Shown: one piece after another, positions 5,851 through 47,981 of the stretch
How the letters are laid out: the number at the start of each line of letters is the position of its first letter
Numbering within the stretch: the stretch's first letter is position 1
Origin: Myxococcota bacterium
GTDB taxonomy: Bacteria > Myxococcota_A > UBA9160 > UBA6930
DNA length: 64,000 nucleotides
Direction of reading: 5' to 3'
NCBI GenBank assembly: GCA_028277885.1
Contig: JANQFK010000022.1
Coordinates: 176,052-240,051, forward strand
The notes under the pieces: model-generated
Databases searched by the model: none
Seen by the model: the letters and a program-made list of their open reading frames with translations, nothing else
Told to the model about the DNA's origin: nothing
Position numbers and translations under genes: made by a program

Positions 5851-7494
5851 ATGCGGCGCCCTCTCCACAGCACCCTCGCCGATGCGGGAAGCTCGCCCTG
5901 GCTCGGGCGCCTGCTCGTCGTCCTGTGCGTGAGCGTCGCCTACGAGTCGCTCTTCCTCGTCCACAGCCTGAACCGGATGGACGAGTCCTGGCCGCTCTAC
6001 GCCGGCATGCAGCTCCACGCCGGCGGTCGCCTCTACGACGACGTGCTCTGGGTCTTTCCTCCGGGCCACGTCTGGATCGGGTGGCTCTCCTGGTGGCTCG
6101 ATCCACCGGGATTCATCCTGGCCCGGCTCCTGTACTCGGTCTTCGCGGTCGCCCTGTGCGCCGGCGTCTACTTCCTGGCCCGGCGGCTCATGCCCGAGCC
6201 CTTCGCCCTGCTCGCCGGGCTGCTGGTGGCCCTGGCGGCGCCGCGCAGCCACCTCGGCCACCTCCTGTTCGGCTACCGCTACCTGATCCTCGTGGTGCTG
6301 GCGCTCCTCGCCTACGACCGGCGCCTGCGCGGAGGCTCCGCGCTCTGGATGTGGGTGTCGGGCGCGTGGATGGGCGTGGCGCTCACCTTCCGGGTGACGC
6401 CGGCGTTCTCGGCGAGCTGTGGGATCGCGGTGGCGCTCCTCGCCGCCAGCCCGAGCTTCCGTCGCTGCATCCAGGACGGCCTGCGCTTCAGCGGCGGGCT
6501 GGCGATCGTCGTCGTCCCCGTGCTGGCCTACTTCGCGGCGGGCGTCGGGCTGGGACGGCTCTGGCAGGAGGTCATCCTCCACCCGCTCGAGATGCTCCAG
6601 GCGCTCCCGCTGCCGGAGATCCGCTGGCCGTCGGATGGGGGCCGCATCCCCATCTACCGGTTCTTCGTGGCGCTCCAGTTCCGGCTGATCTGGGTGCTGT
6701 ACTTCGGCTACCTCGCCGTCCTGGCGGCGCTCTGGGTGCGGGCGAGGCGCCGCGGCGAGCCCTTCCGCCACGGGCTGCTCACCGCCGTGGTGGTCTTCGG
6801 CGCCGTCTTCTTCGTCCGCTCCACCGGTCGCTCGGACGAGGCCCACCTGGACTCGGTGATCGCTCCGGTCTGCCTCGTGTTCGCCCACCTGTCGGCCTGG
6901 CTCTTCACCGCTCTCTGGCCCGGCGACGGGAGCGGCGGGGCGGGCTTCGGCTGGCGATCGGTCTCGGCCCACGGGCTCGGCGCGGCGTTGCTGGGGAGCT
7001 GGATCTTCCTGCTGGGCGTGGACGAGTCCAGCCGGCTGCGGGTGCGCGGCGGCTGGCCCCTCGAGAGCGTGGGCGGGACGATCCTCATGCAGCCCCGCTT
7101 CCACGTGGAGAACATCGACCGCGTGGTCCGTCTCATCGAGGAGGCCACGCAGCCCGACGATCGGATCCTCAACCTGTCGGCGACGCCCATGTTCCACGTG
7201 TTGACGGGTCGCCTGGGCCCGGGCCACCGGGACCTGATCATGCCCGGCACCTTCTTCGACGACGCCGAGGAGCGCCGCTTCCTGGCCCGGCTCCGCTCCG
7301 ATCCTCCCGCCGCCGTGGTCTGGCCCGTGCGCGCCTTCGATCGCATGCGCTCCCGCTCCCACAAGGCGACGGCGCCGCGGGTCACGGCCTGGGTGGAGCG
7401 GAACTACGAGAAGCTGCCGGGTCAGGAATGGGACGAGCCGATCCACCGCGGTGAGCTGCGCTGGTTCGTCCTCGTGCCGCGAGGCGCTCCTTGA
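5851..7494 (+). CDS. GT-C-like polytopic membrane glycosyltransferase candidate, paralog 2
   Basis: Track ORF 5797..7494 trimmed to ATG 5851 (MRRPLHSTL...). Colinear with 4105-5766 and sharing long identical blocks (NRMDESWPLYA, ARRLMPEPFALLAG, FRVTPAFSASCGIAVAL, GPGHRDLIMPGTF). Confidence 0.85.
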   Translation: MRRPLHSTLADAGSSPWLGRLLVVLCVSVAYESLFLVHSLNRMDESWPLYAGMQLHAGGRLYDDVLWVFPPGHVWIGWLSWWLDPPGFILARLLYSVFAVALCAGVYFLARRLMPEPFALLAGLLVALAAPRSHLGHLLFGYRYLILVVLALLAYDRRLRGGSALWMWVSGAWMGVALTFRVTPAFSASCGIAVALLAASPSFRRCIQDGLRFSGGLAIVVVPVLAYFAAGVGLGRLWQEVILHPLEMLQALPLPEIRWPSDGGRIPIYRFFVALQFRLIWVLYFGYLAVLAALWVRARRRGEPFRHGLLTAVVVFGAVFFVRSTGRSDEAHLDSVIAPVCLVFAHLSAWLFTALWPGDGSGGAGFGWRSVSAHGLGAALLGSWIFLLGVDESSRLRVRGGWPLESVGGTILMQPRFHVENIDRVVRLIEEATQPDDRILNLSATPMFHVLTGRLGPGHRDLIMPGTFFDDAEERRFLARLRSDPPAAVVWPVRAFDRMRSRSHKATAPRVTAWVERNYEKLPGQEWDEPIHRGELRWFVLVPRGAP

Positions 7495-9371
7495 GGCGGA
7501 GCGTGCCGCTCGGTGCGCTGCTGGTCCTCGCCGTGGTCGTCGGGTCCGCGCTCCACCTGTCGCGCGGCTCCCGGCTCAGCGTGGACTGGGTGGACGAGGG
7601 CCAGATCGTGTACCCGGCCTGGCGCGTCTCCGAGGGCGCGCTGCCCTACCGGGACTTCCGCCACCTCTACGGACCCTCGCTCTTCTTCGTGAACGCCGCG
7701 CTCTTCGAGCGCTTCGGCGTCGACCTCGCCGTGCTCCGCAACCTGATGGTCGGGCTCAAGGCCGCCATGGTCGGGCTCGTCTTCCTCGCGGCGCGGGCGG
7801 TGGCGCCGCTGCCGGTGGCGCTCGGGCTGGCGCTGCTCCTCGCGGCCGTGTGGGGCTGGCCGGCCGCGCACCTGAACACTCCCTACGCGAGCTACTACGG
7901 CCTGCCGCTCGCGCTGGCGGGGATGCTCCTGCCCCTGGCCCTCCCGCGCCGGCCGAGGGCCGCCTGGTGGCTGGCGGGCCTGGCGATCGGGACGGCCGCG
8001 ACCTTCAAGCAGACCAACGGGCTGTTCCCGGCCCTGGCCCTCGCGCTGCTCTCGCTGGCCCGCTCCCGGCCCGGCGCCGACGGGGCTCCGCCCGGGGCGC
8101 TCCAGGCCCGCGCCGCCGCCGTGCTGCGCGGAGCCGCGTTCGTGGCCTGCGTGGCCTTGCCGGTCTACTACCTGCGGGGCTCCACGCTCGGAAACGCGGC
8201 CCTGCTGGCCGGGCCGTGGCTGCTGTGCTGCGCCGCGGTGGGGCTCCGGGAGTGGCGAACGCCGCCGGACCCCCGGGAGCGCGCCGCCTCGGCCACGGAG
8301 CTGCTGGGCCTCGCCGCCGGCCTGGTGGTGGCTCCGGCCGCCTACGCGCTCTTCTACGCGGGGCAGGGCGCGCTGCCCGCCCTGGTGGCGGACACGGTGA
8401 CCGAGATGCCCGCGCTGATCCGCTGGTTCGTTCCCCTGGAGGCACCGGGGTCCCTGGCCGTGCTCTGGGTCGCCTGCCTGCTCGGCGCCGCGGGCGCGGG
8501 CGTCTCGTCCCGGCCCCCGCGGCTTCGCGCCGGCGTGGGCGGGCTCTCGCTCGGGGGTCTCGCGCTGGCGAGCGTCGCGTTCCTGCGAGAGGAGGCCTTC
8601 TCGGGCCTGGTCTCGGGGCTGTTTCCGCTGCTCCCCCACGTCGTCACGTGGCTCGCCCTGGCGACCTGGCTACGCGGCGGAGCGCGTCTCGGCGAGCGCG
8701 AGCTGCTCGTGCTCCTCCTCGCCGCCAGTGGGCTGCTCTACCTCTACCCCGCGGCGGACTGGGCCCACGCCTACACCAGCCTGCCGGTCTTCCTCCCCGC
8801 CCTGGGCCTCCTGCTGGCCCGGCCCTTCGCCGCGGGGCTCGCCCGCAGCCGGACGATCTACCTCGCGACCCTGGCCGTCGCGGTGGGGCTCTTCCTCGCG
8901 GTGCCCTTCGTCCTGATCCAGCGCGACTACGCCGCCCTGCGCGGGCGCCCGCTCCCCCAGCGGGCCAGCGGGATCCGCGTGCCCGGCGCCATGCACCGCG
9001 ACCACGTGGCCCTCGCCGCCGCGCTGCTCTCCGACCGCCACCGCGAGCGCGACGTCGTCGTGCTCTCGGGCCAGCACCTGCTCTACTTCGTCAGCGGGCG
9101 CGTGTCGCCCCTCGAGGAGCACGAGTTCGCCCTCTACCTGAACCGCTTCGAGGGCATCTCGGGCGAGGACCTGCGACGGCTCGTGGACCAGGACGCGGTG
9201 GTGGCGCGGCTCGAGGCGACCCGCCCGCTGCTGGTCGAGGACTACCAGGGCGCGGGCGCCCGCCTGCGCCGGCAGCTGCCCCGGCTGGGCCGCTACATCG
9301 AGCGGCGCTACCGGGAGCAGAGCCGGGTCGGCGGGCTGCGCATCCTCGACCGGCGGGAGCCGGCCCGCTAG
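7491..9371 (+). CDS. GT-C-like polytopic membrane protein, third more divergent member of the array
   Basis: TTG start overlaps the previous stop (alternative GTG at 7503). First-loop VDWVDEGQIVYPAW. Many TM segments followed by a C-terminal soluble region. Confidence 0.8.
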   Translation: MRRSVPLGALLVLAVVVGSALHLSRGSRLSVDWVDEGQIVYPAWRVSEGALPYRDFRHLYGPSLFFVNAALFERFGVDLAVLRNLMVGLKAAMVGLVFLAARAVAPLPVALGLALLLAAVWGWPAAHLNTPYASYYGLPLALAGMLLPLALPRRPRAAWWLAGLAIGTAATFKQTNGLFPALALALLSLARSRPGADGAPPGALQARAAAVLRGAAFVACVALPVYYLRGSTLGNAALLAGPWLLCCAAVGLREWRTPPDPRERAASATELLGLAAGLVVAPAAYALFYAGQGALPALVADTVTEMPALIRWFVPLEAPGSLAVLWVACLLGAAGAGVSSRPPRLRAGVGGLSLGGLALASVAFLREEAFSGLVSGLFPLLPHVVTWLALATWLRGGARLGERELLVLLLAASGLLYLYPAADWAHAYTSLPVFLPALGLLLARPFAAGLARSRTIYLATLAVAVGLFLAVPFVLIQRDYAALRGRPLPQRASGIRVPGAMHRDHVALAAALLSDRHRERDVVVLSGQHLLYFVSGRVSPLEEHEFALYLNRFEGISGEDLRRLVDQDAVVARLEATRPLLVEDYQGAGARLRRQLPRLGRYIERRYREQSRVGGLRILDRREPAR

Positions 9372-11245
9372 GGCGCGGGCGTCAGGTCCAGGAACAGCGA
9401 GATGTACTCGCCGTTCTTCGACACCTCCACCAGGCCGAGCTGCAGTCCCAGGAAGTCCGGCAGCGGGAACGACTCGAGCGAGGTCAGGAGATCCGGCAGG
9501 GCCGAGGGCAGGATGCCCTCGAGCAGGCTCTCCACCGTCGCCTCGAAGATGCCGAGCTTGTCCCGGATGATGTCGACGTTGATCTCCTGGGCCACCACGG
9601 CGCCGAGCGTGAAGGAGAGCTCGCCGGCCGCGAACGTGATGTCGAGCCCCACGGTCAGGTCCACCACGCCCTGGAGGTACGTCTTCAGGTTGTTGTTCCG
9701 GATGTTCACCTGGAGCTGGGCGATGCGCATCTCCGCGAGCTCGCCCAGGGGTCCGGGCGCGCCCGTGATGAGCGGGGCCGTGGTCGGCCGCAGCTCGAGC
9801 ACGAGGGCCTCGTCCGGGTCCACGGTGCCGAACTCGGGGATGACCGACGCCAGCACGCCGGCGGTGAGCGGCACCGGGTCCGGGATGACGGGCGGGATCG
9901 CGATCTCGTTGATGTTCTGGATCAACAGGCCGCTCTCGATCTCGGCCTTGAGGAGCTGGTTGAAGGCCGAGGTGGAGAGGGAGATCGCGAGCTCGTAGGG
10001 GAGCGCGCCCGGACTGAGCGCCTCGCAGGTGCCGCCGGGACAGTTCGCGTCCACGTCGCAGGCGTTGCCGTCGTTGCTCCCGCCGACGCAGTGGGCGAAG
10101 GACGGGAAGGGCTCCGGGATGTGGTAGGAGGCCGTGAGATCCACCGCCATGGGGTCGGGCATGGAGGCCGTGATGCGTGCGTCGGAGTCGAGGGTGAGGC
10201 CCTCGACGTCCTCGAACACGTCGAAGAGCGGCGTCTCGAGGCTCACGCCGACGGCCTGGCCGAGGGGGCCCGAGATCTCGATCTCGGCCAGGGCCAGCTC
10301 GACCTCGTCGGCGATGGGGCCGTCGAGGGGCCCGGAGCCGTCCGGATCGTTCAGGAAGCCGGCGAGGGCTCCCTGCACCTCGGCGGTGACGTCGCTCTCG
10401 ATGATCCCGAAGAACTGCGCCACCTCGCACAGGAAGCCCGAGGTGATCTCGAAGTCGAAGCCGGTCCCGCCGAAGCTGAGGTTCCCCTGCTGGACGACGT
10501 CGATCAGGCTGGGATCGCCGGCGTCGGCCTGGAGGTCGTAGACGCCGTCCACCTCGACCAGGCTGCTGGTGATGCGACCGTCGCAGTTCGGAGCCAGGAA
10601 GCCCTGGCCGTCGAGGAAGACGTTCACGACCACGTTGTTGAGGTCGATGTTGGCCGCCACGTTGCCGTTGGACAGGGCGTCGATGTCGAGGCCGAAGGGC
10701 TGGCTGAACGACGGCGCCGGGTTGCGGACCGAGATGTCGAAGTCCCACACCGCTTCGACGGTGAGCAGGAAGAGGCCCACGGGCACCAGGGTGGCGAGAT
10801 CGATGCTGATGCCCGACTGGACGATCGACTGGGCCTCGTCGAGGCCCGAGTCGTTGAGCCGCAGGGCGACGCCCATGGGGGAGAAGGCGCCGTCGGCGAT
10901 CGACTCGCCCTGGAAGACGGTGACGCGGTCGCGCACGTCCTTGTTGGCGAAGCCGTAGGTGTACCGGACCAGGATCGGGTTCACGATGTCGGTGAGGTTC
11001 ACCGTCGCCGAGAAGGAGCCGCCGCCGCCCACGGGGGTGACGACGCCGTTCACGCGCAGCGTGCCGTCGGCTCGCGGGTTCAGCACGACACCGGCAACGG
11101 ACACGCTCGTCGCCGTGGTGAAGATGCCGTGGTCCGGGGTCGCGATGACGACCCTCGGGTCCGGCGTGCCGCAGGGCATGCCGAGCAGACCGAGGACGGA
11201 GACGGCGACGAGAGCCGCGAGCGAGGAGCGGGCGCGCTGGTTCAC
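9368..11245 (-). CDS. secreted lipoprotein: N-terminal Ig-like domain, then a possible BPI/LBP/CETP-like (TULIP) lipid-binding fold with a Cys-rich insert
   Basis: Track ORF 9368..11473 trimmed to GTG 11245, preceded by GGGGGA. Signal peptide VNQRARSSLAALVAVSVLGLLGMPC. Visibly lower GC, rich in N/I/F/D. C-terminus is FPLPDFLGLQLGLVEVSKNGEYISLFLDL. Confidence 0.85.
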   Translation of the reverse strand: MNQRARSSLAALVAVSVLGLLGMPCGTPDPRVVIATPDHGIFTTATSVSVAGVVLNPRADGTLRVNGVVTPVGGGGSFSATVNLTDIVNPILVRYTYGFANKDVRDRVTVFQGESIADGAFSPMGVALRLNDSGLDEAQSIVQSGISIDLATLVPVGLFLLTVEAVWDFDISVRNPAPSFSQPFGLDIDALSNGNVAANIDLNNVVVNVFLDGQGFLAPNCDGRITSSLVEVDGVYDLQADAGDPSLIDVVQQGNLSFGGTGFDFEITSGFLCEVAQFFGIIESDVTAEVQGALAGFLNDPDGSGPLDGPIADEVELALAEIEISGPLGQAVGVSLETPLFDVFEDVEGLTLDSDARITASMPDPMAVDLTASYHIPEPFPSFAHCVGGSNDGNACDVDANCPGGTCEALSPGALPYELAISLSTSAFNQLLKAEIESGLLIQNINEIAIPPVIPDPVPLTAGVLASVIPEFGTVDPDEALVLELRPTTAPLITGAPGPLGELAEMRIAQLQVNIRNNNLKTYLQGVVDLTVGLDITFAAGELSFTLGAVVAQEINVDIIRDKLGIFEATVESLLEGILPSALPDLLTSLESFPLPDFLGLQLGLVEVSKNGEYISLFLDLTPAP

Positions 11246-20581: not shown

Positions 20582-21280
20582 ATGGCGGCGTCCCGAGGCC
20601 ACGGCTGGTGGCCCTACCTGGGCCCCTACGGCCTGTTCCTGATCCTGGTCGAGATCGGCAGCCGCACGCCGGAGTCCGCGGCCGGCGCGATGCTGCTCGT
20701 GAAGGTGCTGCTCCCCGGCGCCCTGGTGCTCCACTTCGCCCGACGCGGCGACTACCCGGAGCTGAGCGGCTACCGACCCGGCGCGGCCGGCTTCGCGGCC
20801 GACGTGCTGTGCGGCCTGGTCATCACGGCGCTCTGGATGGGCCCGTTCCTGCTGCTTCCGGGCCTCGAGCGCGGCGCGCCCGAGGACGCCTTCGACCCCG
20901 CCGGCTTCGCGCCGCTGGGCGCCGGGGTCGCCCTCGGCGTGCGCCTGCTGGGCTTCGGGGTGGTGACGCCCTTCGTCGAGGAGCTCTTCGTGCGCAGCTT
21001 CGTGATCCGGCTGGTCGACGTGATCGACACCGGCGAGGACTTCCGCAGCGTCCCCATCGCCCGCTTCACCTGGCGGAGCTTCGTCATCACCGCCGTCTGG
21101 TTCACCTTCACCCACGTGCCCTGGGAGTGGGGCGTGGCCGCCGTCGCGGGCGTGGTGTTCAACCTCTGGCTCTACCAGCGCCGCCACATCGGCTCCCCCA
21201 TCGTCGCCCACGCCGTCGCCAACGCCTCCATCTGGGCGATCGTGGTCCTGGGCCCAGGCGACCTGTGGGTATTCCTGTAG
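20582..21280 (+). CDS. CPBP-family intramembrane glutamic endopeptidase (CAAX protease-related)
   Basis: 232-aa polytopic protein with motifs PFVEELFVRSF, FTFTHVP and VAHAVANASIW. Confidence 0.9.
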   Translation: MAASRGHGWWPYLGPYGLFLILVEIGSRTPESAAGAMLLVKVLLPGALVLHFARRGDYPELSGYRPGAAGFAADVLCGLVITALWMGPFLLLPGLERGAPEDAFDPAGFAPLGAGVALGVRLLGFGVVTPFVEELFVRSFVIRLVDVIDTGEDFRSVPIARFTWRSFVITAVWFTFTHVPWEWGVAAVAGVVFNLWLYQRRHIGSPIVAHAVANASIWAIVVLGPGDLWVFL

Positions 21281-22909: not shown

Positions 22910-23629
22910 GTGGAGGTGCTGCCCGCCGACGAGGTCCACGTCTGGTGGGCGCCGCTCCCGGAGACCGAGGCCCGGGAGAGCTGGGAGCTGCTCTCCGAGG
23001 CGGAGCGCGAGCGCGCCCGCCGCTTCCGCTTCCCGCGCCACCGCCGGGCCTTCGTCGCCTCTCACGCCATGGTGCGCACCACGCTCTCCCGCTACGCCGC
23101 CGTCTCGCCCGCCGCCTGGGAGTTCGTCGCCGAGCGGCGCGGGCGGCCCCGGGTGGCGGGCCCCGCCGGCGCCGCCCGGCCGCGCTTCAACCTCTCCCAC
23201 AGCGACGCTCTCGCCGCCTGCGCGGTGGCGGCCGAGCTCGACGTCGGCGTGGACGTCGAGGGAGCGGCCCGCGTCCGCCACGCCCTCGAGATCGCCGAGC
23301 GCTACTTCACCCGCGGCGAGGCCGAGGCGCTTCGCGACCTCGAGGGTGCGGCCCGGGTGGCGCGCTTCCTCGACCTCTGGACGCTCAAGGAGGCCTACGT
23401 GAAGGCGCGCGGCGACGGGCTCGCCCTGCCGCTCGACGGGATGGGGTTCGCACCCGGCGCCGACCGGGTGGCCGTGGCGTTCCAGCCCGGCCTGCGGGAC
23501 GAGCCGGGCCACTGGCAGTTCGCCCTCGAGGAGCCCGTGACGGGCCAGCGCCTCGCGCTGGCGGTGCACCGGCCGGGACGGCCCGACGTCGCCGTGCGGC
23601 TGCGCCGGGCCGGGCCGCTCGCGGGCTGA
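22910..23629 (+). CDS. Sfp-type 4'-phosphopantetheinyl transferase
   Basis: Last 239 aa of track ORF 21311..23629, GTG start at 22910. Motifs FNLSHSD, GVDVE and WTLKEAYVKARG. Confidence 0.9.
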   Translation: MEVLPADEVHVWWAPLPETEARESWELLSEAERERARRFRFPRHRRAFVASHAMVRTTLSRYAAVSPAAWEFVAERRGRPRVAGPAGAARPRFNLSHSDALAACAVAAELDVGVDVEGAARVRHALEIAERYFTRGEAEALRDLEGAARVARFLDLWTLKEAYVKARGDGLALPLDGMGFAPGADRVAVAFQPGLRDEPGHWQFALEEPVTGQRLALAVHRPGRPDVAVRLRRAGPLAG

Positions 23630-24405: not shown

Positions 24406-26178
24406 TTGAGCCTCACCCTTCGAGCAGCACGTGAGCTCCGCGGAGCGGTGGGGGGCGGTCTCGCCGCAGCGGCGATCGGCGCCGGCTGGGCGGCGGGCTA
24501 CGGGCTGCCCGGGAGCGCGATCGCGGCGTCGGCGGGCCTCCACGGCGTCGCCGGTCTCGCGCTGGGTGCGCTCCTCGGCCGGCTCCACCCGGCCCTGGCC
24601 GCGGTGGCGGCCGCCGTGCTGTTCGCCGCGCTGCCGGCGGGCTGGGCGGCGCTCACCGCGGCGCCCGAGGCGAGCGCGCCGCTCGCGCCGCGCCCGGTGG
24701 CGAAGGCCGAGCCCCGGGACGCGACGGCGCGGCGCGTGGCCGTGATCGGGCTCGACGGCGCGGACTGGCGCGTGATCGACCCGCTGCTCGCCGCGGGCGA
24801 GCTTCCCCACCTGCGCGCGCTCCTGGCGCGCGGGCGCGGCTGGGTGCTGCGCTCCACCGACCCCAGCAGCTCGCCGGTGGTGTGGACGTCGATCTTCTCG
24901 GGCAAGCCGCCCGAGGCCCACGGCATCACGGACTGGGACTCGTCCCGCGCCGACAACCGGCGGGCGGCGCTGCTCTGGGAGCTGCTGGCCGGGGCCGGCC
25001 TGCGCTCGGTGGTGGTGAACGTGCCCGGCAGCTGGCCGCCCACGGCCGTGGACGGCGCCTTCGTGTCGGGCTTCCCGATGCCCTCGCCGCTGCTGCCCGC
25101 CTCGGCCGAGACCGGCTTCCAGAACCTCGGCACCCTGGTGGACCCCGAGGCCCGTGCGGCGACGCTGACGGTGGTGGGCGCGCGGGACGGCCGCGCCGAC
25201 GTGAGCCTCGGCCGTCTGGCGCCGCGCGCCCGGGGCAGCCTGCGCCACCCGCTGTTCGAGACGCGCGCGGCCCGGCGCTGGCTTCCCGCCCGGTCCCTGG
25301 AGACCGAGGTCGCGCTGGCCAACGGCAGCGCGCCGCCGCCGGGCGAGTGGTCCCACTGGCACCACCACGCCGAGGCCGGCGTGGCCCTCGTGTACCGCAT
25401 GCACCGCCTGGCGGACTCCCGCCTGTGGCTCACGCCGGCCTTCCAGGACCCGGCGCGGCCGTCCCTGGTCTTCACCAACGCGCCCTGGGTCGCCGAGGCG
25501 CTGGCCGCGAACGGGCCCTACGTGGTGGAGGGAGCCGGCTGGCGGCTCGCCGCGGAGCCCGCGCTGCGCACCACCCTGGTCGAGCACCTCGAGCAGGTCG
25601 AGGCGCGCCATCGGCGCGCCGCCGAGACGCTGCTGGCGGCGGTTCCCGACTGGCGGCTCTTCGCCCACGTCATCACCCTGCCGGACCGGGTCTCCCACGC
25701 GTTCTGGCGCTTCCACGCGCCCTCGGACTACCCGGCCGCGGAGCCCGGCGAGGCCGCCGCCCAGGCCGAGCGGGTGCGCGAGGCCTACCGGGTGGCCGAC
25801 GTCCACCTCGGCGCGCTGCTGGCCCGGGTGGACGACGGCGAGACCCTGATCGTGGTGCCGAGCGACCACGGCTTCCAGTCGAATCCGCCGGAGTGGGGCA
25901 ACCATCGCGACGCCGGCATCCTGGTGCTGGCCGGGCCGGGCGTGGGCCATCGGCCCGAGCGCGGCGAGCGCTCGATCTACGACGTGACGCCGCTGGCCCT
26001 GGCGGCCCTCGGGCTACCGGTGGCGTCGGACATGGTGGGCGAGGTGCCGGGCGGCCTGGCCGCGGCCGACACCGTGCGCCGGATCGCCAGCTACGAGCGC
26101 GGCGCGGCCCCCGCGGCCGGCGCCCGCATCGACGAGACCACCACCGAGCAGCTGCGCAGCCTCGGCTACGTGGAGTGA
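24406..26178 (+). CDS. membrane-anchored alkaline-phosphatase-superfamily enzyme (type I phosphodiesterase/NPP-like)
   Basis: N-terminal TM helices. Motifs VIGLDGADW, SSSPVVWTSIFSGKPPEAHGI and VVPSDHGF. C-terminal tail is EQLRSLGYVE*. Confidence 0.85.
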   Translation: MSLTLRAARELRGAVGGGLAAAAIGAGWAAGYGLPGSAIAASAGLHGVAGLALGALLGRLHPALAAVAAAVLFAALPAGWAALTAAPEASAPLAPRPVAKAEPRDATARRVAVIGLDGADWRVIDPLLAAGELPHLRALLARGRGWVLRSTDPSSSPVVWTSIFSGKPPEAHGITDWDSSRADNRRAALLWELLAGAGLRSVVVNVPGSWPPTAVDGAFVSGFPMPSPLLPASAETGFQNLGTLVDPEARAATLTVVGARDGRADVSLGRLAPRARGSLRHPLFETRAARRWLPARSLETEVALANGSAPPPGEWSHWHHHAEAGVALVYRMHRLADSRLWLTPAFQDPARPSLVFTNAPWVAEALAANGPYVVEGAGWRLAAEPALRTTLVEHLEQVEARHRRAAETLLAAVPDWRLFAHVITLPDRVSHAFWRFHAPSDYPAAEPGEAAAQAERVREAYRVADVHLGALLARVDDGETLIVVPSDHGFQSNPPEWGNHRDAGILVLAGPGVGHRPERGERSIYDVTPLALAALGLPVASDMVGEVPGGLAAADTVRRIASYERGAAPAAGARIDETTTEQLRSLGYVE

Positions 26179-26853
26179 GGCGCCGGCGCCGGCGGTCTCC
26201 TCCGCCGGACCCTCGGTGGGCCAGCGCTCGCCGATCAGCGGGTCGAGGGAGAGCGCGAAGGAGAGCAGCCGGCTGCGCGCGGCCTCGGTCTCGCCGGAGC
26301 GCAGCGGCGTGCTCAGCCGGATGAGCGCGCCGTCGGCGCGGCCCTCGAGCAGGCGCCCGGCCAGGCGGTCGAGGTTCTGGTCGATACCGCCCAGCATGCC
26401 GGTGCGGCGGTGGGAGCGGTACCAGAACAGCACCAGGCGCCGCTCGCGGTCGCGCTCCACCACGTACTCGTTCATGGCGAGCTCGCCCTGCGGGTCGGCG
26501 CGCACCACCCGGGACTCGGGGATCCCCCAGCCCGCGCCGGTGTAGCAGCCCCGGGGCGTGTGCTCGGGACGGCCGCCGCGGCCGGTGCCGTAGTAGCCGA
26601 GGTAGAGCCACACGACGCCGCCCTCGGAGCTCCGGTAGGCGCGCTGGAGGTTGAAGTCGGCGCGCAGCGCGTTCTCCACCACGGAGTCGATGGGCAGGTC
26701 CTCGGAGCGCCAGCCGTCGATCTCGCGGGGCAGGGTGGCGAGCGCGCTGGCGTCGACCACCGGCGCGCCGCGCAGGGTGAGGGCCCAGGCGAGGGCGCCC
26801 ACGGCCACCAGGACCGCACACAGCAGCGCGGTGGAGAGCTGGTCGCGGCTCAC
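26014..26853 (-). CDS. EpsI-family protein (exosortase-associated periplasmic domain)
   Basis: Part of track ORF 26014..27684. GTG 26853 forms a GTGA overlap with the upstream stop. N-terminal TM helix, then LPREIDGWRSEDLP..LQRAY..VWLYLGYYG..EHTPRGCYTGAGW..LVLFWYRSHRR..GRADGALIRLSTP. Confidence 0.8.
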   Translation of the reverse strand: MSRDQLSTALLCAVLVAVGALAWALTLRGAPVVDASALATLPREIDGWRSEDLPIDSVVENALRADFNLQRAYRSSEGGVVWLYLGYYGTGRGGRPEHTPRGCYTGAGWGIPESRVVRADPQGELAMNEYVVERDRERRLVLFWYRSHRRTGMLGGIDQNLDRLAGRLLEGRADGALIRLSTPLRSGETEAARSRLLSFALSLDPLIGERWPTEGPAEETAGAGASLHVAEAAQLLGGGLVDAGAGRGGRAALVAGDPAHGVGRGQAARHLAHHVRRHR

Positions 26854-28082
26854 CGCGCTCCCCTCCCCAGGCGCAGGCCCAGCCGGCGCCCTCCCCAGAG
26901 CGCCGCCGCCGCCGCGCCCAGCTGGGCGAGGGGGGTCGGGCGCAGCCCGCCGAGCAGGGGCAGCGCCGCGGCGCCGGCGAGGCCCGCCGCCAGCCACGCC
27001 GCGCCGCCCCGGGACGGCGCGAACAGGCCGACCGGGAAGGCCCAGAGCGCCAGCCAGGCCATGGCGAGCGCCGGCCGCAGGCGATCGAAGGCGCTTCGCT
27101 CGGGCAGCAGCAGCATCCAGCCGTCTCCCACGGTCGGCCCGAGCCCGCAACGCTCGAGGCCGTTCACCGCCAGGCACAGATCGGCTTCCGAGCGCCTCGC
27201 CTGCACCCGGATCGCATCGCCGGGCGCCGCCGCCGCCAGCGCGCCGGGGCTCCGGACCCGGGTGGACTCGAGGCCCAGGGCCTGGCCGCGGCTGCGGTAG
27301 CGCAACACGAGGTCGGGACCCTCGGGCCCGAGCAGCAGGAGCCCGTGGCCCTCGACGTCGGTGATCAGCAGCAGGGCGGCCTGGCCGGAGGGGGCGGGGC
27401 CCGCGCGCCCCTCGACCTCCACCCGGAACGGGCCGGTCAGGGAGGCGCGCACGGCCTCGGCATCGGGGAGCCGGCCGTGGGGAACCGGAGCGCCGTCGAG
27501 GCGCGCCGCGTCCAGGGACCCGGCGTAGGGCGCGAGGTGGCCCAGGTCCGGCGTCCAGTGCCCCGAGAGCGGTCCGTCCGCTGCGCGCCCCGGAGCCGCG
27601 GCGAGCAGGAGGCCGGTGCCGGCCAGGGCGGCGAGGCAGACGGCCAGCGCCAGTGCGGCGGCGAGCGGGCGCGGGCGCAGCCACGCGTCGGCATGGGCGG
27701 CCGCCAGTGCGCCGAGCCCCGCGCCGCTCGCGTTCGCGATCACGTCGACGAGGCTCGGGTCGCGGCCGGGGATGGCGAGCTGGGCGGCCTCCACCGCGAG
27801 GCCGAGGGCCAGACCCGCCGCGGCCACGAGCCCGGGACGCACGCCGAGCAGCACCGCCGCGGCCCCCGCCGGCAGCAGCAGGGCGAGGTTGCGCAGCACG
27901 TCGGAGAGCGCGATGCCGCCCGGCGCCGCGTCCGGCGGCGGTACGCCCGCACTCGGGCCGGGTGCGGGCCAGAGGGTGGCGAACGCGAAGGCGGCGAGCG
28001 CGCAGGCCAGCGCGAGGGCCGCCGTCGGCCGTCGCCAGTGCGAGGCACCCGACGCGTGCGTGCTCCCCTCGGCTTTCCCCAT
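26850..28082 (-). CDS. VanZ-like membrane domain + beta-sandwich (LamG-like?) domain + C-terminal TM helices
   Basis: Track ORF 26850..28160 trimmed to ATG 28082. VanZ-like stretch SDVLRNLALLLPAG...GRDPSLVDVIANASGAGLGA. Central soluble domain, then 3 C-terminal TM helices. Confidence 0.75.
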   Translation of the reverse strand: MGKAEGSTHASGASHWRRPTAALALACALAAFAFATLWPAPGPSAGVPPPDAAPGGIALSDVLRNLALLLPAGAAAVLLGVRPGLVAAAGLALGLAVEAAQLAIPGRDPSLVDVIANASGAGLGALAAAHADAWLRPRPLAAALALAVCLAALAGTGLLLAAAPGRAADGPLSGHWTPDLGHLAPYAGSLDAARLDGAPVPHGRLPDAEAVRASLTGPFRVEVEGRAGPAPSGQAALLLITDVEGHGLLLLGPEGPDLVLRYRSRGQALGLESTRVRSPGALAAAAPGDAIRVQARRSEADLCLAVNGLERCGLGPTVGDGWMLLLPERSAFDRLRPALAMAWLALWAFPVGLFAPSRGGAAWLAAGLAGAAALPLLGGLRPTPLAQLGAAAAALWGGRRLGLRLGRGAR

Positions 28083-28183
28083 CGCGGCGCCAGAACCTAG
28101 CAGTCCGGCGGGTGGGCCCGGTAGCAAGCCGGGGCCGTCGCCGCGTGCCGACAGGGTCACGGGCAGAGGGCTAGCATGCCGCG

Positions 28184-32254: not shown

Positions 32255-32472
32255 TCCCGAGGGCGGGGCGCGGTAGCCCACCCGGGCTGCGGCGTTGCTC
32301 CCGCGCCCGGGCCCTCTACGTTGGCCGGAAATCGTCGCTGCGGGTTCCGCCTCCGCCCCGATTCTTCCGATACGCATGGGAGGACCGGAGGCCCGGCGGC
32401 GGGCATCCACACGGTCCGGAGGGCCCGGGAACGCAGCGCCCGGGGAGCCTAGGAGTGGGGGCGAACGGCAGC

Positions 32473-38388
<5,916 letters not shown>

Positions 38389-38398
38389 GGGGGCGGCG

Positions 38399-39205
38399 AT
38401 GAACCCCTTCTTCTTCGGGACCTCCGAGGAGCGCCTGCTGGGCGTCCACCACCCGCCCCGCGGCCGCGCGCCCCGGGACGTCGGCGTGCTGCTGTGCGCG
38501 CCCTTCGGCCAGGAGTACATGCGCGCCCACCGCGCGTTCCGCCAGCTGGGCCTGCTGCTCGCCCGCCGCGGCTTCCACGTGCTGCGCTTCGACTGGTTCG
38601 GCACCGGGGACTCGGCGGGGGACGCCGAGGAGGGGAGCCTGGCCCGCTGGGTCGCCGACGCCCGCGCCGCCATCGAGGAGCTCGAGGACACCGCGGGCGT
38701 GGCCCGGGTCTCCCTGGTGGGCCTGCGCCTCGGCGCGCTGGTGGCGGCCCTCGCGGCCGAGGGGCGCGACGACGTCGCCGACCTGGTGCTCTGGGACCCG
38801 GTGGTGGAGGGGCGCCTGTATCTCGAGCAGCTGCGCAAGGCGCAGCACGTCCACGCGGGAGAGGATCCGGGCGACCTGACCCGGCTCGCTCCGGACGCCG
38901 TGGCCGGCATCCTCGGCTTCCCGATCACCGGCGCCCTGGCCGCGGAGCTCACCGCCGCGGACCTCACCGCGGTGGGGCTGCCGGCGCTGCGCCGGGTGCT
39001 CAGCGTGGTGGCCGAGGAGCGCGAGGAGTACGCCCGCTGCGACCGGGCGCTCGCCGAGCGCGGCCTCGACGTGCGCAGCGAGTGCCTGCCCGCCGGCGGG
39101 AGCTGGGCCGAGGTCGACAACTTCGGCTCGGCGCTGATCCCCCATCAGATCGTCCAGGCCATCGTGGCCTTCCTCGACCAGGAGCCCGGGGGAGCCCCGC
39201 GATGA
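38399..39205 (+). CDS. alpha/beta-hydrolase-fold protein with GLRLG at the nucleophile elbow (exosortase-system 'hydrolase'-like)
   Basis: ATG 38399 lies 10 nt after the PKS stop. Motifs LRFDWFGTGDSAG, SLVGLRLGALVA (Arg codon 38726-38728), LVLWDP and ALIPHQ. Confidence 0.85.
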   Translation: MNPFFFGTSEERLLGVHHPPRGRAPRDVGVLLCAPFGQEYMRAHRAFRQLGLLLARRGFHVLRFDWFGTGDSAGDAEEGSLARWVADARAAIEELEDTAGVARVSLVGLRLGALVAALAAEGRDDVADLVLWDPVVEGRLYLEQLRKAQHVHAGEDPGDLTRLAPDAVAGILGFPITGALAAELTAADLTAVGLPALRRVLSVVAEEREEYARCDRALAERGLDVRSECLPAGGSWAEVDNFGSALIPHQIVQAIVAFLDQEPGGAPR

Positions 39206-40095
39206 GGGAGCGCGCGATCCGGTTCGGAAGCCACGGGACCCTCGCGGGCATCGTGTGCGAGCCCGCCGGGCGGGGGGCGACCCGCGCCGTGGTGATGGTG
39301 AACTCCGGGATCCTGCACCGCGTCGGCGCGTGCCGCCTGCACGTCAAGCTCGCCCGCCGGCTGGCGGAGCGGGGCGTGCCGTCGCTGCGCTTCGACCACT
39401 CGGGGATCGGGGACAGCGAGGCCCGCCGCGACAGCCTGCCCTTCGAGAAGAGCGCCGTGCTCGAGATCCGCGAGGCCCTCGACTGGCTCGCGACCAAGCG
39501 CGGCATCGAGCGCTTCACCGTGCTCGGCCTGTGCTCCGGCGCCGACATGGCGTTCGAGGCCGCGCGGGAGGAGCCGCGCATCGACGGTCTGGTGCTGCTG
39601 GATCCGTGGGCCTACCGCACGCCCCGCTACTGGTGGACCCACTACCGGGCGCGGGTGACGAGCGCCGCCGCCTGGCGGAGGCTCTGGGAGCGCCACGCGG
39701 GCCGCCGCGTCGCGCCTCCGGCGCCGACCGGACCCGCGGCCGAGGAGGACCTCGACCTGCCCACCTACGTGCGCGAGTTCCCGCCCCGCGAGCGCGTGGC
39801 CGCGGACCTCGCCGCGATGGCGGCCCGGGGCCTGCGGCTGCTGTGCCTCTTCTCCGGCGGCCAGGGCGACCACTACAACCACGCGGGGCAGATGCGCGAG
39901 AGCTTCCGCGACGTGGATCTCGGCGAGCGTCTCGAGGAGGTCTTCCTCCCCGACGCGGACCACATCTTCACCGACCTGGGGCACCAGCAGACGGTGCTGC
40001 GCACCGTCGAGGGCTGGCTCGTCGCCGCGAGCGACCCGGCCGCCGACGCCGGCGCGCCCCAGGCGCTGCCCGCCACCGCGGGCTCGTCGGCCTGA
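39202..40095 (+). CDS. alpha/beta-hydrolase-fold protein with GLCSG (Cys) nucleophile elbow
   Basis: ATG 39202 forms an ATGA overlap. Motifs LRFDHSGIGDSEA, VLGLCSGADMA (Cys codon 39532-39534), LVLLDPW and DADHIF. Confidence 0.85.
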   Translation: MRERAIRFGSHGTLAGIVCEPAGRGATRAVVMVNSGILHRVGACRLHVKLARRLAERGVPSLRFDHSGIGDSEARRDSLPFEKSAVLEIREALDWLATKRGIERFTVLGLCSGADMAFEAAREEPRIDGLVLLDPWAYRTPRYWWTHYRARVTSAAAWRRLWERHAGRRVAPPAPTGPAAEEDLDLPTYVREFPPRERVAADLAAMAARGLRLLCLFSGGQGDHYNHAGQMRESFRDVDLGERLEEVFLPDADHIFTDLGHQQTVLRTVEGWLVAASDPAADAGAPQALPATAGSSA

Positions 40096-40102
40096 GCGCG
40101 CC

Positions 40103-41221
40103 GTGGAGCCCGCGCGTCCCGCGCCCCTCACGATCGCCCAGATGATCGAGACCGACGGCCCCGGCGGCGCCGAGACCGTGGTGCTCGAGCTGTCGCGGGA
40201 GCTGCGACGCCGCGGCCACCGCGTGATCGCGGTGGGGCCCGAGCGGGGAGAGGGGTGGCTCTCGGGGCGCTTCCACGACGATGGCTTCGAGCGCCGCGGC
40301 TTCCGGATCCGGCGCGCCCTCGACCCGCTCTTCCTGCGCGACCTGACCCGCATGCTCCGCGACGTGGACGTGGTGCACAGCCACGAGTTCACCTGCGCGG
40401 TCTACGGCGCCGCGGCGACCCGCCGCCTGGGGATTCCCCACGTGATCACCATGCACGGCAACGAGCGGGTGGCCGACGCCTGGCGCCGGCGCGTCGCGCT
40501 GCGCTGGGCGTTCCGGCGCTCTGCGCACTGCCTCACCATCTCCGACACCACCCGCTTCGACATGGAGACGCGGCTGGGCCTCGCGTCCGGCGTGCTCGAG
40601 GTGGTTGCCAACGGGGTCGCGGTGCCCGAGGGCGACGCCGCGCGGATCCGCGCCGAGCTCGCCCTCGAGGAGGGCGACCTGCTGCTGCTCGCCGTGGGGA
40701 ACCTCTACGAGCGCAAGGGACACAAGGTGCTGCTCGAGGCCCTGCACCGCGTCCTCGCCGAGGGCAAGCGGCCCCTGCACCTCGCCATCGCGGGCCGCGG
40801 AGCCGAGCACGACCGCCTGATCGAGTTCGCCGAGGAGTGCGGGATCGCGGAGCGCGTGCACCTGCTGGGCGTGCGCGACGACGTGCCCGACCTGCTCGCC
40901 GGCGCCGACGTCTACGTGATGCCGTCCTTCTGGGAGGGGATGCCCCTGGCGCTCCTCGAGGCGATGCTGGCCGGCAAGCCCTGCGTGGCGAGCCGCACCG
41001 GCGGGATCCCCGAGGTGGTCGCGTCGGACCGCCTCGGCGTGCTGGTGCCGCCGGGGGACGTCGAGGCCCTCGCGAACGCGCTGGCCCGGGTGGTGGACGA
41101 TCCGCCCCTGCGGGCCTCCCTGGGCCGGGCCGCCCGGGAGCACGCGCTGGCGCGCTACACGCTCCCGGTCATGACCGACGCCTACGAGCGACGCTACCGT
41201 GACGCGCCGTCTAGCGCCTGA
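40103..41221 (+). CDS. GT4 glycosyltransferase
   Basis: GTG start. Motifs IETDGPGGAE and SFWEGMPLALLEAMLAGKPCVAS. Confidence 0.9.
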   Translation: MEPARPAPLTIAQMIETDGPGGAETVVLELSRELRRRGHRVIAVGPERGEGWLSGRFHDDGFERRGFRIRRALDPLFLRDLTRMLRDVDVVHSHEFTCAVYGAAATRRLGIPHVITMHGNERVADAWRRRVALRWAFRRSAHCLTISDTTRFDMETRLGLASGVLEVVANGVAVPEGDAARIRAELALEEGDLLLLAVGNLYERKGHKVLLEALHRVLAEGKRPLHLAIAGRGAEHDRLIEFAEECGIAERVHLLGVRDDVPDLLAGADVYVMPSFWEGMPLALLEAMLAGKPCVASRTGGIPEVVASDRLGVLVPPGDVEALANALARVVDDPPLRASLGRAAREHALARYTLPVMTDAYERRYRDAPSSA

Positions 41222-45882: not shown

Positions 45883-46986
45883 GTGGCGCGGGTGGCCGGG
45901 GCCGGAGACGCGCGCCACGCGGACCGCTGGCTCGCGCCCGGCCCGGAGTGGCGGCGCTGCGAGTCCCAGCTCGAGGCCGCGGGCGTTCCCCTCGCCTTCG
46001 TGCAGCGCGCCGTCTCGGCCGAGGCGGAGCGGGCGGGGGCCTGGCGGTTCCTGGCCGTCCGGGACGACGAGGAGCGCTGCCGCTGCGGCTTCGCGGTGCG
46101 CGAGGAGGGGACGCGGGCGCTCCCCGGCCACCGCATCTGGCGCGTCGAGCGCTTCGGCGCGGCGGCCGACGCCGCGAGCCGCGCGCACGCCCTCACGGCC
46201 CTGGCGGCGCGGGCCCGGACGGCCCGACGCGTGCTGCGCGTCGAGCTCGGCGTGGTGGAGCGCGACCCGGAGCGCGCCGCCGCCCTGGCCCGGGAGGCGG
46301 AGCGGGCGGGCTTCGCGCCGAGCCCGAGCCCGCGTCTCTACCGCGACACGATCGCGATCGACCTCCGCCGCGACCTCGACGCCATCCTCGCCGGGTTCAA
46401 GAAGCAGACGCGCAAGAACCTGCGGCGCATGGAGCGCGAGCCCTTCGCGGTGCGGCCCCTCGAGGATCCGGCCTGCGCGGAGCGGATGGAGCGGCTGCTG
46501 GCCGAGACCATGGGGCGCACCGGCGGGCCCGCCGAGGCCGCGGACTGGCGGGCGCGCATTCGCGTCGCCCGGGAGCACCCCGGGCTCTCCCGGCTGGCGG
46601 GCCTGTTCCGCGACCCCGGGCAGGGGCCCGAGGCGCTGGTGGCCTTCGGCTGGGCGGTCCACAACGGAGACCACGTCGAGTACCGCACCACCGCGTCGAC
46701 CCGCATCGCGGGCTCGCGGCTGCCGCTCACCTACGGGCTCGCCTGGGACCTGCTGCGCTGGGCCCGGGAGCGGGGCGCCGCCTGGTTCGACTTCGGCGGG
46801 GTGAGCGCGGGCGGGCTGGGCAGCGAGGATCCCCTGGGCGGCATCTCGGACTTCAAGCGCTCGTTCGGGGGTGAGGTCACAAGCATTGGCTCTGAATGGA
46901 TTTTCGAGCCTCGGCCGCTGCTCGCTCGGGTGGCCCGAGGCGCGGGAGCCCTGCGCCGGGCGGTCCGCGGCAGGCGCCGCTCGTGA
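45883..46986 (+). CDS. FemAB-like (aminoacyl-transferase-type GNAT fold) protein
   Basis: C-terminal part of track ORF 44857..46986, with GTG 45883 as a tentative start. Motifs FKKQTRKNLRRMER and YGLAWDLLRWARERGAAWFDFGG...GISDFKRSFGG. Confidence 0.8.
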   Translation: MARVAGAGDARHADRWLAPGPEWRRCESQLEAAGVPLAFVQRAVSAEAERAGAWRFLAVRDDEERCRCGFAVREEGTRALPGHRIWRVERFGAAADAASRAHALTALAARARTARRVLRVELGVVERDPERAAALAREAERAGFAPSPSPRLYRDTIAIDLRRDLDAILAGFKKQTRKNLRRMEREPFAVRPLEDPACAERMERLLAETMGRTGGPAEAADWRARIRVAREHPGLSRLAGLFRDPGQGPEALVAFGWAVHNGDHVEYRTTASTRIAGSRLPLTYGLAWDLLRWARERGAAWFDFGGVSAGGLGSEDPLGGISDFKRSFGGEVTSIGSEWIFEPRPLLARVARGAGALRRAVRGRRRS

Positions 46987-47981
46987 GCCCGGTCGTCCAC
47001 CTGGTCGCCTCCATCGACACCGAGGAGGACAACTGGCTGCCCACCCGGAACGACGTCCGCGTCGAGAACATCCAGGAGCTGCCGTCGCACCACCGCCTGC
47101 TGCGCGCGCTGGGCCTCAAGCCCACCTACTTCGCCGATCACCCGGTGGTGGCCGACCCGGCCGCGGCGGCGCGGCTCGCGGAGCTCGAGGGGGCCGAGCT
47201 CGGCGCCCACCTGCACCCCTGGAACACGCCGCCCCTCGACGAGGCGCTGACCCCCGCCCACACCATGCTGCGCAACCTCCCCGCCGCGCTCCAGCGGGCA
47301 AAGCTGGCCCACCTGGTCGACGCCCACGAGGCCGCCTTCGGGCGCCGGCCCACCTCGTTCCGTGCGGGCCGCTTCGGCCTGGGACGCGAGACCGTGGCGG
47401 CCCTCATCGACGCGGGCTTCGAGGTGGACAGCAGCGTGGTGCCCTTCGTGAGCTGGCAGGGCGACGAGGGCCCGGACTTCGACGGCGCACCGGTCCACCC
47501 CTATCGCCTCGACGGTCGCTCGGACCCCCGGACGCCGGCGAGGGACGGCCCGCTGTGCGAGATCCCGCTCTCGGCCGGCTTCACGCGCCGGCCCTTCGGC
47601 TGGCGCTCGCGGCTGCATCGCCGGCTGTCGCGGCCCCCGTTCCCCCGGCTGCGCATGCTCGGGCTGGCCTCGCGCCTGGGCCTGGCCCGGCGGGTGATCG
47701 TGAGCCCCGAGACGGACACCGCGGAGGACATGCTGGCGGTGTCGCGCCAGCTCGTGGCCGAGGGCGCCTCCTGCCTGCAGATCTTCTGGCACAGCCCGAG
47801 CCTCGTGCCCGGCCTCGGGCCCTTCGTGCGCGAGCCCCGCGACCGCGGGGCCCTGGAGCGTCGCATCGAGGACTACGTATCCGGCCTGGCGCGGGACTAC
47901 GAGCTGCGGCCGGTCACGGTGAGCGAGGCGGCGGCCGCGCTCCTCCCGCCGCTTCCCCCGCGACCCGGGGCGTCGGCGTGA
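46983..47981 (+). CDS. polysaccharide deacetylase-like protein (WalW-type)
   Basis: Track ORF 46896..47981 trimmed to GTG 46983 (GTGA overlap). Motifs HLVASIDTEEDNW, GAHLHPW and FRAGRFG. Confidence 0.85.
   Translation: MSPVVHLVASIDTEEDNWLPTRNDVRVENIQELPSHHRLLRALGLKPTYFADHPVVADPAAAARLAELEGAELGAHLHPWNTPPLDEALTPAHTMLRNLPAALQRAKLAHLVDAHEAAFGRRPTSFRAGRFGLGRETVAALIDAGFEVDSSVVPFVSWQGDEGPDFDGAPVHPYRLDGRSDPRTPARDGPLCEIPLSAGFTRRPFGWRSRLHRRLSRPPFPRLRMLGLASRLGLARRVIVSPETDTAEDMLAVSRQLVAEGASCLQIFWHSPSLVPGLGPFVREPRDRGALERRIEDYVSGLARDYELRPVTVSEAAAALLPPLPPRPGASA

Follow-up and report, generated by a model that had tools for sequence, protein, structure and literature searches.

Exosortase-A-associated hydrolases 1 and 2 are a pair of dissimilar alpha/beta-fold proteins, encoded in exopolysaccharide and exosortase loci, where the neighboring genes include those for a carrier protein and for an enzyme that adenylates. 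They were reportedly first flagged around 2006, and the NCBIfam models that represent them, TIGR03100 (hydrolase 1) and TIGR03101 (hydrolase 2), have the status of 'hypothetical equivalogs'. Our literature searches turned up no functional study of either protein and no paper on Cys or Arg at their nucleophile elbows, on a hydrolase 2 lacking the triad, on fusions of the two, or on their linkage to carrier domains; almost nothing was found on the families in general or on a connection between polyketide synthases (PKSs) and exosortases. Here we consider two overlapping genes, A and B, that encode relatives of this pair in a stretch of 64,000 nucleotides (hereafter the window) from a Myxococcota bacterium (contig JANQFK010000022.1, positions 176,052 to 240,051). 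They lie downstream of a type I PKS in which no thioesterase (TE) was recognized. We propose, with a probability of roughly 0.6, that A and B make up a heteromeric, carrier-directed module for acyl transfer or release, in which B forms an acyl-enzyme through a Cys residue and A is a non-catalytic partner.

Some precedent for such a module exists in other pathways. Cys in place of Ser at the elbow is typical of enzymes that transfer an acyl group from a thioester to some other acceptor, such as CmaE, SyrC, and PhaC, and both CmaE and SyrC are alpha/beta-fold enzymes that use Cys. CmaE, SyrC, CouN7, and LgnA (type II TE) are free-standing proteins that form a covalent intermediate with acyl or aminoacyl groups taken from a carrier thioester and then pass them along (PMC8748450). 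The likeness of B to these four is mechanistic, drawn from their descriptions and not from their sequences. Enzymes of the CmaE/SyrC type differ from the pair considered here in that they act alone, with no Arg-elbow partner, and belong to antibiotic pathways, where the recipient is either a further carrier protein or some small molecule. Another point of comparison is GrgF, an alpha/beta-fold protein that fuses polyketide chains from a PKS with no release step of its own (PMC8902786). The solved structure of GrgF (6lzh) is a weak match of the B profile (E-value 7.8e-5), but GrgF comes from a fungus, works without a second subunit, and carries out a Claisen-type chain fusion. Finally, the Bep polysaccharide cluster of Burkholderia cenocepacia, needed for biofilm formation, encodes a hypothetical protein, Bcam1334, that resembles TIGR03100 (PMC3584217).

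The genes of the pair, called by codon-position GC in a window that is about 75% GC, and the residues pertinent to the argument are the following.

38399-39205, + strand: open reading frame (ORF) A, 268 aa, an apparently triad-less protein of alpha/beta-hydrolase fold, related to hydrolase 2 (TIGR03101), with Arg110 at the nucleophile elbow
39202-40095, + strand: ORF B, 297 aa, a protein of alpha/beta-hydrolase fold, related to hydrolase 1 (TIGR03100), with a putative Cys111-His254-(Asp134) triad
39202-39205, + strand: ATGA overlap, read from the sequence, in which the stop codon of A and the start codon of B share bases (translational coupling)
38726-38728, + strand: codon CGC for Arg110 of A (GLRLG), which replaces the nucleophilic Ser and is aligned with the Ser of 9pjb and 7q4h
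39532-39534, + strand: codon TGC for Cys111 of B (GLCSG), at the nucleophile position and aligned with the Ser of 9pjb and 8b4u
39601-39603, + strand: codon GAT for Asp134 of B (LVLLDPW), after strand beta6, the likely catalytic acid as predicted from conservation
39961-39963, + strand: codon CAC for His254 of B (DADHIF), at the position of the catalytic His and aligned with the His in GGDHTF of 9pjb

Third-position GC is 0.97 in both ORFs, matching the neighboring genes. The two proteins have in common the motif LRFD[WH]xGxGDS near their N-termini (VLRFDWFGTGDS in A, SLRFDHSGIGDS in B). An initial annotation of this DNA had noted the motif, the overlap, and the two elbow codons, and the DNA bears out all of them at the same coordinates.

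Membership of both proteins in the alpha/beta-hydrolase superfamily is clear. Both match Pfam Hydrolase_4 (PF12146) well above its cut-off of 27 bits (39.7 bits for A, 38.5 for B), and AlphaFold (AF2) models built from alignments of 120 and 94 sequences show the fold with confidence (A, pLDDT 93.1; B, pLDDT 88.6) and with the canonical strand order. The solved structures closest to both models are feruloyl esterases, TTL lipase, and PET46 (9pjb, 8b4u, 7q4h, 7xrh, 7wwh), with profile E-values of 1e-16 to 1e-23, a Foldseek probability of 1.00 to esterases, and Foldseek TM-scores of 0.54-0.72. The motifs RFDxxGxGDS and xHRxF are common to these esterases and to A and B. The esterases, however, are single-subunit enzymes with a Ser-Asp-His triad and an HG oxyanion motif, whereas B has Cys and NSG at the corresponding positions and A has Arg and [YA]P. 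No obvious signal sequence was seen by eye, without a predictor, at the N-terminus of either protein, and we propose that both are cytoplasmic.

The annotation had itself named one finding that would speak against its elbow residues, an alignment with structural homologs in which the elbow moves and a Ser comes to light. Profiles of each family were searched against all sequences of the Protein Data Bank (PDB), and no such shift occurs. The segments 'vllGlCsGaDma' of B and 'slvGlRlGaala' of A are aligned with 'GVIGLSMGGRVA' of 9pjb and 8b4u, the site of the nucleophilic Ser, and in the alignment with the solved Ser hydrolases 9pjb, 8b4u, and 7q4h (GLSMG), the column of that Ser holds Cys111 of B and Arg110 of A. 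Downstream, 'dadHiF' of B falls upon the catalytic 'GGDHTF' of a solved esterase.

The residues that occupy these positions in B are strongly conserved. A search of 1.84 billion proteins found 985 clusters at 50% identity that match B with E-values no greater than 1e-30. Cys111 is kept in all 120 close homologs and in 149 of 151 representatives of 50%-identity clusters, and His254 in 147 of the same 151. (Cys is also present at the elbow of B in 53/53 genome loci, a count that is biased by the retrieval of some loci through a pattern containing the Cys.) The position of Asp134, at the end of beta6, holds Asp or Glu in 148/151 representatives. Three relatives have Asn instead, namely the fusion proteins of Azospirillum and Burkholderia described below and the protein of locus L052, and in all three the beta7 loop contains an Asp. 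One acid, from beta6 or from beta7, is perhaps always kept, as far as so small a sample can tell. Asp223, in the canonical beta7 loop of B itself, was considered for the role of the acid and set aside, as the position is acidic in 110 of 120 close homologs but in only 56 of 151 cluster representatives. The catalytic acid of B is thus probably Asp134. Judged by its sequence, B retains a candidate Cys-His-acid triad at canonical positions and looks active, as the annotation had supposed in describing a plausible Cys-Asp-His triad.

Neither A nor B matches Pfam Thioesterase (PF00975, type II TE) at an E-value of 0.01 or below, and PhaC is absent from the NCBIfam and Pfam matches, from the PDB profile matches, and from the top 50 Foldseek matches. 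On the matches in NCBIfam, Pfam, PDB profiles, and Foldseek, assignment to the PhaC family or to the type II TE family was rejected.

A presents the opposite picture. Its Arg110 is as well kept as the Cys of B (120/120 close homologs), and the residue is present as well in 49 of 50 A genes that were sampled solely as neighbors of B, hence not selected on any feature of A. The rest of the catalytic apparatus is gone. Position 208 of A, where TTL lipase has its acid, Asp203, is Arg and varies among relatives. The HG oxyanion motif of the solved esterases is [YA]P in the A family. The initial annotation had kept His249 (in ALIPHQ) as a candidate catalytic His, and this part of it does not survive: of 120 homologs, 117 have another residue at the position (92 Gln, 25 Val) and only 3 have His. 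Lacking Ser, acid, His, and oxyanion motif, A would be no classical hydrolase and looks catalytically dead. Cys33-x-Pro35, Glu39, Arg110, Trp132-Asp133, Trp236, Asp240, and Pro248, all around the former active site, are invariant. Since invariant loops line the old active site, A is better thought of as having a conserved, putative binding site than as the product of a decaying pseudogene.

How does the pair relate to the canonical hydrolases 1 and 2? The annotation had suggested a comparison with those families, and A is indeed nearest to hydrolase 2 and B to hydrolase 1, with both scores below the cut-offs. B scores 111.0 bits against TIGR03100 (cut-off 168.45), aligned over residues 3-274 with positions 2-273 of the model's 274. 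A scores 107.0 bits against TIGR03101 (cut-off 202.75), over residues 3-191 only. The same is true of their relatives: 20 relatives scanned against TIGR03100 score 64-101 bits and eight scanned against TIGR03101 score 64-118 bits, all under the respective cut-offs. Nor did any protein reach the cut-off as a bona fide member of TIGR03100 or TIGR03101 in a scan of genomes, a tblastn search of plasmids, the 1.84 billion representatives, or NCBIfam searches with 29 relatives. From the low scores of the pair and of the 29 relatives, it appears that they form a large sister clade and not the curated family itself. Like hydrolase 1, B adjoins a second, dissimilar alpha/beta-fold protein. The pair differs from the canonical one in its other partner, which here is a PKS (elsewhere a nonribosomal peptide synthetase, NRPS) with a fused carrier domain in place of a free acyl-CoA ligase and acyl carrier protein (ACP).

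What residues the canonical families prefer at the elbow was probed through the profiles, as opposed to their seed alignments, by scoring point mutants of A and B. Against TIGR03100, B loses 6.0 bits with C111S, 5.8 with C111A, and 5.5 with H254A, and A gains 7.2 bits with R110C. Against TIGR03101, A loses 3.2 bits with R110S, 3.3 with R110A, and 3.9 with R110C, as compared to 0.4 with C33A, a control. The hydrolase 1 profile thus favors Cys at the elbow, strongly, along with the His of the His loop, and the hydrolase 2 profile has a preference for Arg at the elbow, which indicates that the arrangement is family-wide and not peculiar to this locus. By the same probing, the beta6 Asp of B and Cys33 of A are specific to the clade.

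Cys33 raises the question of whether A is dead after all. Perhaps its site has been rebuilt, for example with Cys33 beside Arg110, so that an acyl chain is relayed from the carrier to Cys111 of B, from there to Cys33 of A, and on to an acceptor, or perhaps A carries out some other chemistry on the chain. Cys33 is invariant in the clade (120/120 and 48/49) and present as well in the versions of A from Variovorax, Azospirillum, and Burkholderia; it ends strand beta3, in this fold a neighbor of the elbow; and many of the loops of the active site are invariant, as already described. The canonical family does not conserve it, though, to go by the slight cost of C33A, and the His loop of A has no conserved His. 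We consider a rebuilt site improbable.

The hypothesis that the pair works on a carrier-bound chain comes from what lies upstream of it.

32455-38388, + strand: type I PKS, 1977 aa, with the order KS-AT-KR-DH-(AMP-binding_C relic)-PCP according to Pfam and NCBIfam domains, and without a loading module
37744-37950, + strand: relic of the C-terminal subdomain of an adenylation domain (A_C), PKS residues 1764-1832, 28.7 bits against Pfam AMP-binding_C and no AMP-binding match
38041-38226, + strand: terminal peptidyl carrier protein domain (PCP), PKS residues 1863-1924, 52.8 bits against Pfam PP-binding, the presumed acyl donor for B
38125-38127, + strand: codon for Ser1891 (GGHSL), the phosphopantetheine Ser of the terminal PCP
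22910-23629, + strand: 4'-phosphopantetheinyl transferase (PPTase) of the Sfp/HetI type, matching Pfam ACPS and AASDHPPT_N, and NCBIfam HetI-like with 137 bits, below the cut-off

The PKS carries the motifs TACSTS, EAHGTGT, and NIGH in KS, GHSMG in AT, TGGLGGLG, LDD, and YTAAN in KR, and His1416 in DH. Judged by such motifs, KS, AT, KR, DH, and PCP look intact, and it is likely that the PPTase of the window activates the PCP. The LDD motif marks KRs of the B type, which give an (R)-3-hydroxyl. In the A_C relic, the A10-like motif reads GELDRRAL, its Glu standing at the usual position of a conserved Lys. The absence of a TE, from which the annotation had reasoned, is real insofar as Pfam and NCBIfam find no TE domain in the PKS and its only GxSxG is that of the AT serine.

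The association of the pair with such a carrier extends far beyond this locus. Genome loci containing B were retrieved (53 in all, identified here by L numbers), mostly from metagenome-assembled genomes (MAGs) of Gemmatimonadota and Myxococcota, with some from Acidobacteria, Gammaproteobacteria, and others. A adjoins B in 49 of 51 loci, and a homologous KS-AT-KR-DH PKS lies directly upstream of the pair in 40 of the 47 that are informative. In nearly all of about 50 loci, from several phyla, the pair comes directly after the carrier domain of a PKS or NRPS. Three loci with an upstream megasynthase of a different kind have the same end: according to Pfam, that of L052 reads C-A-A_C-PCP, a PKS/NRPS hybrid in L053 ends in C-A-A_C-PCP, and that of L057 reads A-PCP-KS-AT-PCP-C-A-A_C-PCP. 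No TE was found in any of the megasynthases scanned with Pfam (that of the window and those of L052, L053, and L057). By tblastn, nearly every locus, whether of the PKS or the NRPS kind, has an A_C relic or subdomain and then a PCP just ahead of A, and the identity of the PCP across loci is 45-71%. The case of L053 is instructive. Its A_C and PCP are 51% and 62% identical to those of the window, while its A and B are just 36% and 32% identical. The A_C-PCP didomain thus travels with the pair, whatever it is that builds the chain, and this suggests that A and B recognize the didomain.

Other arrangements occur as well. In Variovorax paradoxus (strain VAI-C, INQ48_42270/42275) two NRPS genes and a PPTase gene come before A and B, and Wza and Wzc come after. 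In Azospirillum brasilense, a fused A-B gene (H1Q64_RS27565) comes after genes for an ACP, a protein like acyl-CoA dehydrogenase, and a ligase of the amino-acid:ACP kind, in an operon-like row on a plasmid (L060, 2345-9990) in which a GH2 glycosidase and a DUF1839 protein are encoded too. This row links the pair to the chemistry of aminoacyl-carriers in addition to that of acyl chains. In L005, from a Gemmatimonadaceae MAG, the pair stands beside genes for an acyl-CoA dehydrogenase and an AMP-ligase and an 81-aa ORF.

The Cys box and the properties of the PKS bring to mind one further enzyme. A PhaC-like polymerase would make polyester from an (R)-3-hydroxyacyl-S-PCP, and B has the GxCxG box and the Cys-His-Asp in an alpha/beta fold that one would expect of it, downstream of a KR with the LDD motif. 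But the DH of the PKS is apparently intact, pairs of this kind are also found with NRPSs and with aminoacyl-ACPs, and there is the failure, noted above, of PhaC to turn up amongst sequence or fold matches. We regard this idea as highly improbable.

Evidence that A and B work together comes from three fusions, in each of which A precedes B.

Azospirillum A-B fusion, 611 aa: GLRLG ... GLCAG ... GADHS
Burkholderia cenocepacia A-B fusion, 595 aa: GVRAG ... GICSG ... LDHS
Metagenomic A-B fusion P0267, 608 aa

The fusions, along with the coupling of the two genes at ATGA, lead us to infer that A and B are physically associated. In B. cenocepacia, the gene encoding the fusion is followed by those for a GT4 glycosyltransferase and a flippase, which is the order of Bcam1334-1336, and the fusion may correspond to Bcam1334. 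The fusion is unlike the pair of the window in being fused, in having Asn at beta6, and in that no PKS was seen in the stretch that was read.

B is also found fused at its C-terminus to other modules, in P0310 (659 aa), P0387 (553 aa), and P0241 (594 aa). One module is a 360-aa domain, another is a membrane domain of the polytopic type, and the third is rich in Cys and looks secreted; acceptors may be indicated by them. In P0310 the added C-terminal domain, the one of 360 aa, has no match in Pfam, and no BLAST match was found between the fusions and the GNAT/FemAB-like proteins of the window.

According to the model, then, the PKS would build an acyl chain on its terminal PCP, presumably a 3-hydroxy- or 2-enoyl-acyl chain because KS, AT, the B-type KR, and DH look intact. 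Cys111 of B, activated by His254 and probably Asp134, would attack the phosphopantetheine thioester, giving an acyl-S-Cys enzyme. A thiol nucleophile suits an exchange of thioester for thioester. B would then pass the acyl group to a nucleophile on an acceptor tied to the exopolysaccharide pathway or, failing that, to water. A would be an obligate non-catalytic partner, with an Arg-centered pocket that probably serves to bind the A_C-PCP didomain or else an acceptor with negative charge. The annotation had reached much the same view, with a Cys acyl-enzyme and a dead partner as the machinery for off-loading or transfer, and the triad of B, the losses of A, the linkage to carriers, and the fusions all support it, off-loading itself being inferred from context.

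Several observations fit the model poorly. In the flanks examined at L004 and L046, no carrier gene was detected (the ORF upstream in L046 has no Pfam match). L038, from a Polyangiaceae MAG (9352-10858), has B right after an A_C-PCP end with no detectable homolog of A, from which it follows that A is not strictly obligatory everywhere. And D134A costs B only 0.7 bits against TIGR03100, so an acid at beta6 is no feature of the canonical family.

It may also be that there is no transfer at all. B could be a hydrolytic enzyme of release or proofreading, resembling a type II TE in function, that frees an acid from the PCP, while A regulates or stabilizes it. The linkage to carriers and the triad would fit this explanation as well as they do ours, and the nearest solved relatives (feruloyl esterases, TTL lipase, PET46) are hydrolases. 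Nevertheless, one would seldom expect of a plain hydrolase that Cys strictly replaces Ser over about 1000 clusters, Pfam Thioesterase is not matched, and the constant placement in polysaccharide loci, together with an invariant pocket in a second subunit, suggests that there is an acceptor. We think simple hydrolysis unlikely, though it deserves to be kept in mind.

If A and B do transfer acyl groups, the idea might be carried further. Perhaps they and the canonical hydrolases 1 and 2 represent a new class of heterodimeric acyltransferases, in which the Cys of B unloads acyl or aminoacyl groups, made by a PKS, an NRPS, or a ligase, from an A_C-PCP dedicated to the purpose. The Arg pocket of A would offer it an acceptor of negative charge (sugar phosphate, uronic acid, or lipid-linked repeat unit, for instance), and an exopolysaccharide or glycolipid would end up covalently acylated. 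We offer this only tentatively. If true, the class would be a direct biochemical bridge from assembly-line synthesis to polysaccharide systems of the exosortase type.

The pair belongs to a superfamily that is already recognized, that of hydrolases 1 and 2. What is new is its wiring to PKSs and NRPSs by way of an A_C-PCP end, and the scores that fall below the cut-offs. For these long-uncharacterized hydrolases, the locus and its relatives point to a chemistry that can be tested, a Cys acyl-enzyme with a partner lacking the triad, and to a concrete substrate, the A_C-PCP at the end of a PKS or NRPS without a TE. The family ranges over Gemmatimonadota, Myxococcota, Acidobacteria, and Alpha-, Beta-, and Gammaproteobacteria, and among its members are Variovorax, Azospirillum, and Burkholderia, which can be cultivated. 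Should the model be right, it would describe a new mechanism for release from assembly lines. It would also predict exopolysaccharides decorated with polyketides or peptides, with a bearing on the chemistry of biofilm matrices, and would matter to genome mining, where clusters without a TE look 'incomplete'.

The surroundings of the pair are those of a polysaccharide gene cluster, with some features of the exosortase type.

40103-41221, + strand: GT4 glycosyltransferase, directly downstream of B; a homolog follows B in several loci of the Myxococcota type
20582-21280, + strand: CAAX protease of the PEP-CTERM type (TIGR03008, pepcterm_CAAX), 97.1 bits, cut-off 81.05
26014-26853, - strand: EpsI-family protein (TIGR02914), 103.8 bits, cut-off 42.8; similar also to the C-terminus of XrtD
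26850-28160, - strand: 436-aa ORF, directly upstream of the EpsI gene, with no NCBIfam family and a 349-aa core that matches Pfam VanZ weakly

The genes downstream of the pair and around it encode glycosyltransferases (GT4 and GT2), two flippases, deacetylases, GDSL proteins, GNAT/FemAB-like proteins, a cupin, an aminotransferase, a sulfotransferase, and a low-molecular-weight phosphotyrosine phosphatase (LMW-PTP). The pair thus sits inside an exopolysaccharide gene cluster. Since the CAAX protease scores above the cut-off of the PEP-CTERM model, the window appears to belong to an exosortase/PEP-CTERM-type locus. No model for an exosortase, XrtA included, found a match in the window, and no PEP-CTERM substrate was recognized there. 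The 436-aa ORF may encode a divergent exosortase.

With such neighbors, one might imagine that the pair acts on the polysaccharide and has nothing to do with the PKS. A role as a deacylase or as a hydrolase for quality control would be in line with its location in polysaccharide clusters, and a suggestion to this effect was made for Bcam1334 (PMC3584217). However, the lack of any obvious signal sequence by eye at the N-terminus of A or B does not favor such a role, and in nearly all loci the pair follows a carrier, whatever the remainder of the cluster contains, with the didomain conserved alongside. This explanation seems to us very unlikely, and we continue to prefer transfer or release from the carrier.

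A few loci depart from the usual layout. An extra gene lies between A and B in L003 (Gemmatimonadaceae contig_3979) and in L047. In L003 the intervening gene is of the GDSL/SGNH type, and genes for an Acyl_transf_3 membrane acyltransferase and a flippase come after B, a layout that is reminiscent of the relays for O-acylation of polysaccharides. L001 has a VanZ-like protein of 399 aa near its PKS.

Two other features of the window were noted. A 332-aa protein (46983-47981, + strand) has no match in Pfam or NCBIfam, and homologs 47-59% identical to it co-occur with PKS, A, and B in several loci of the Myxococcota type (L001, L006, L007, L009, and L020). Near the start of the window, two genes in tandem (4105-5766 and 5851-7494, both + strand) encode proteins of about 550 aa with termini that are nearly alike (…SPW…RL…LCVS…E.LF… and …W.VL.PR…). 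The two proteins look like tandem paralogs and appear hydrophobic.

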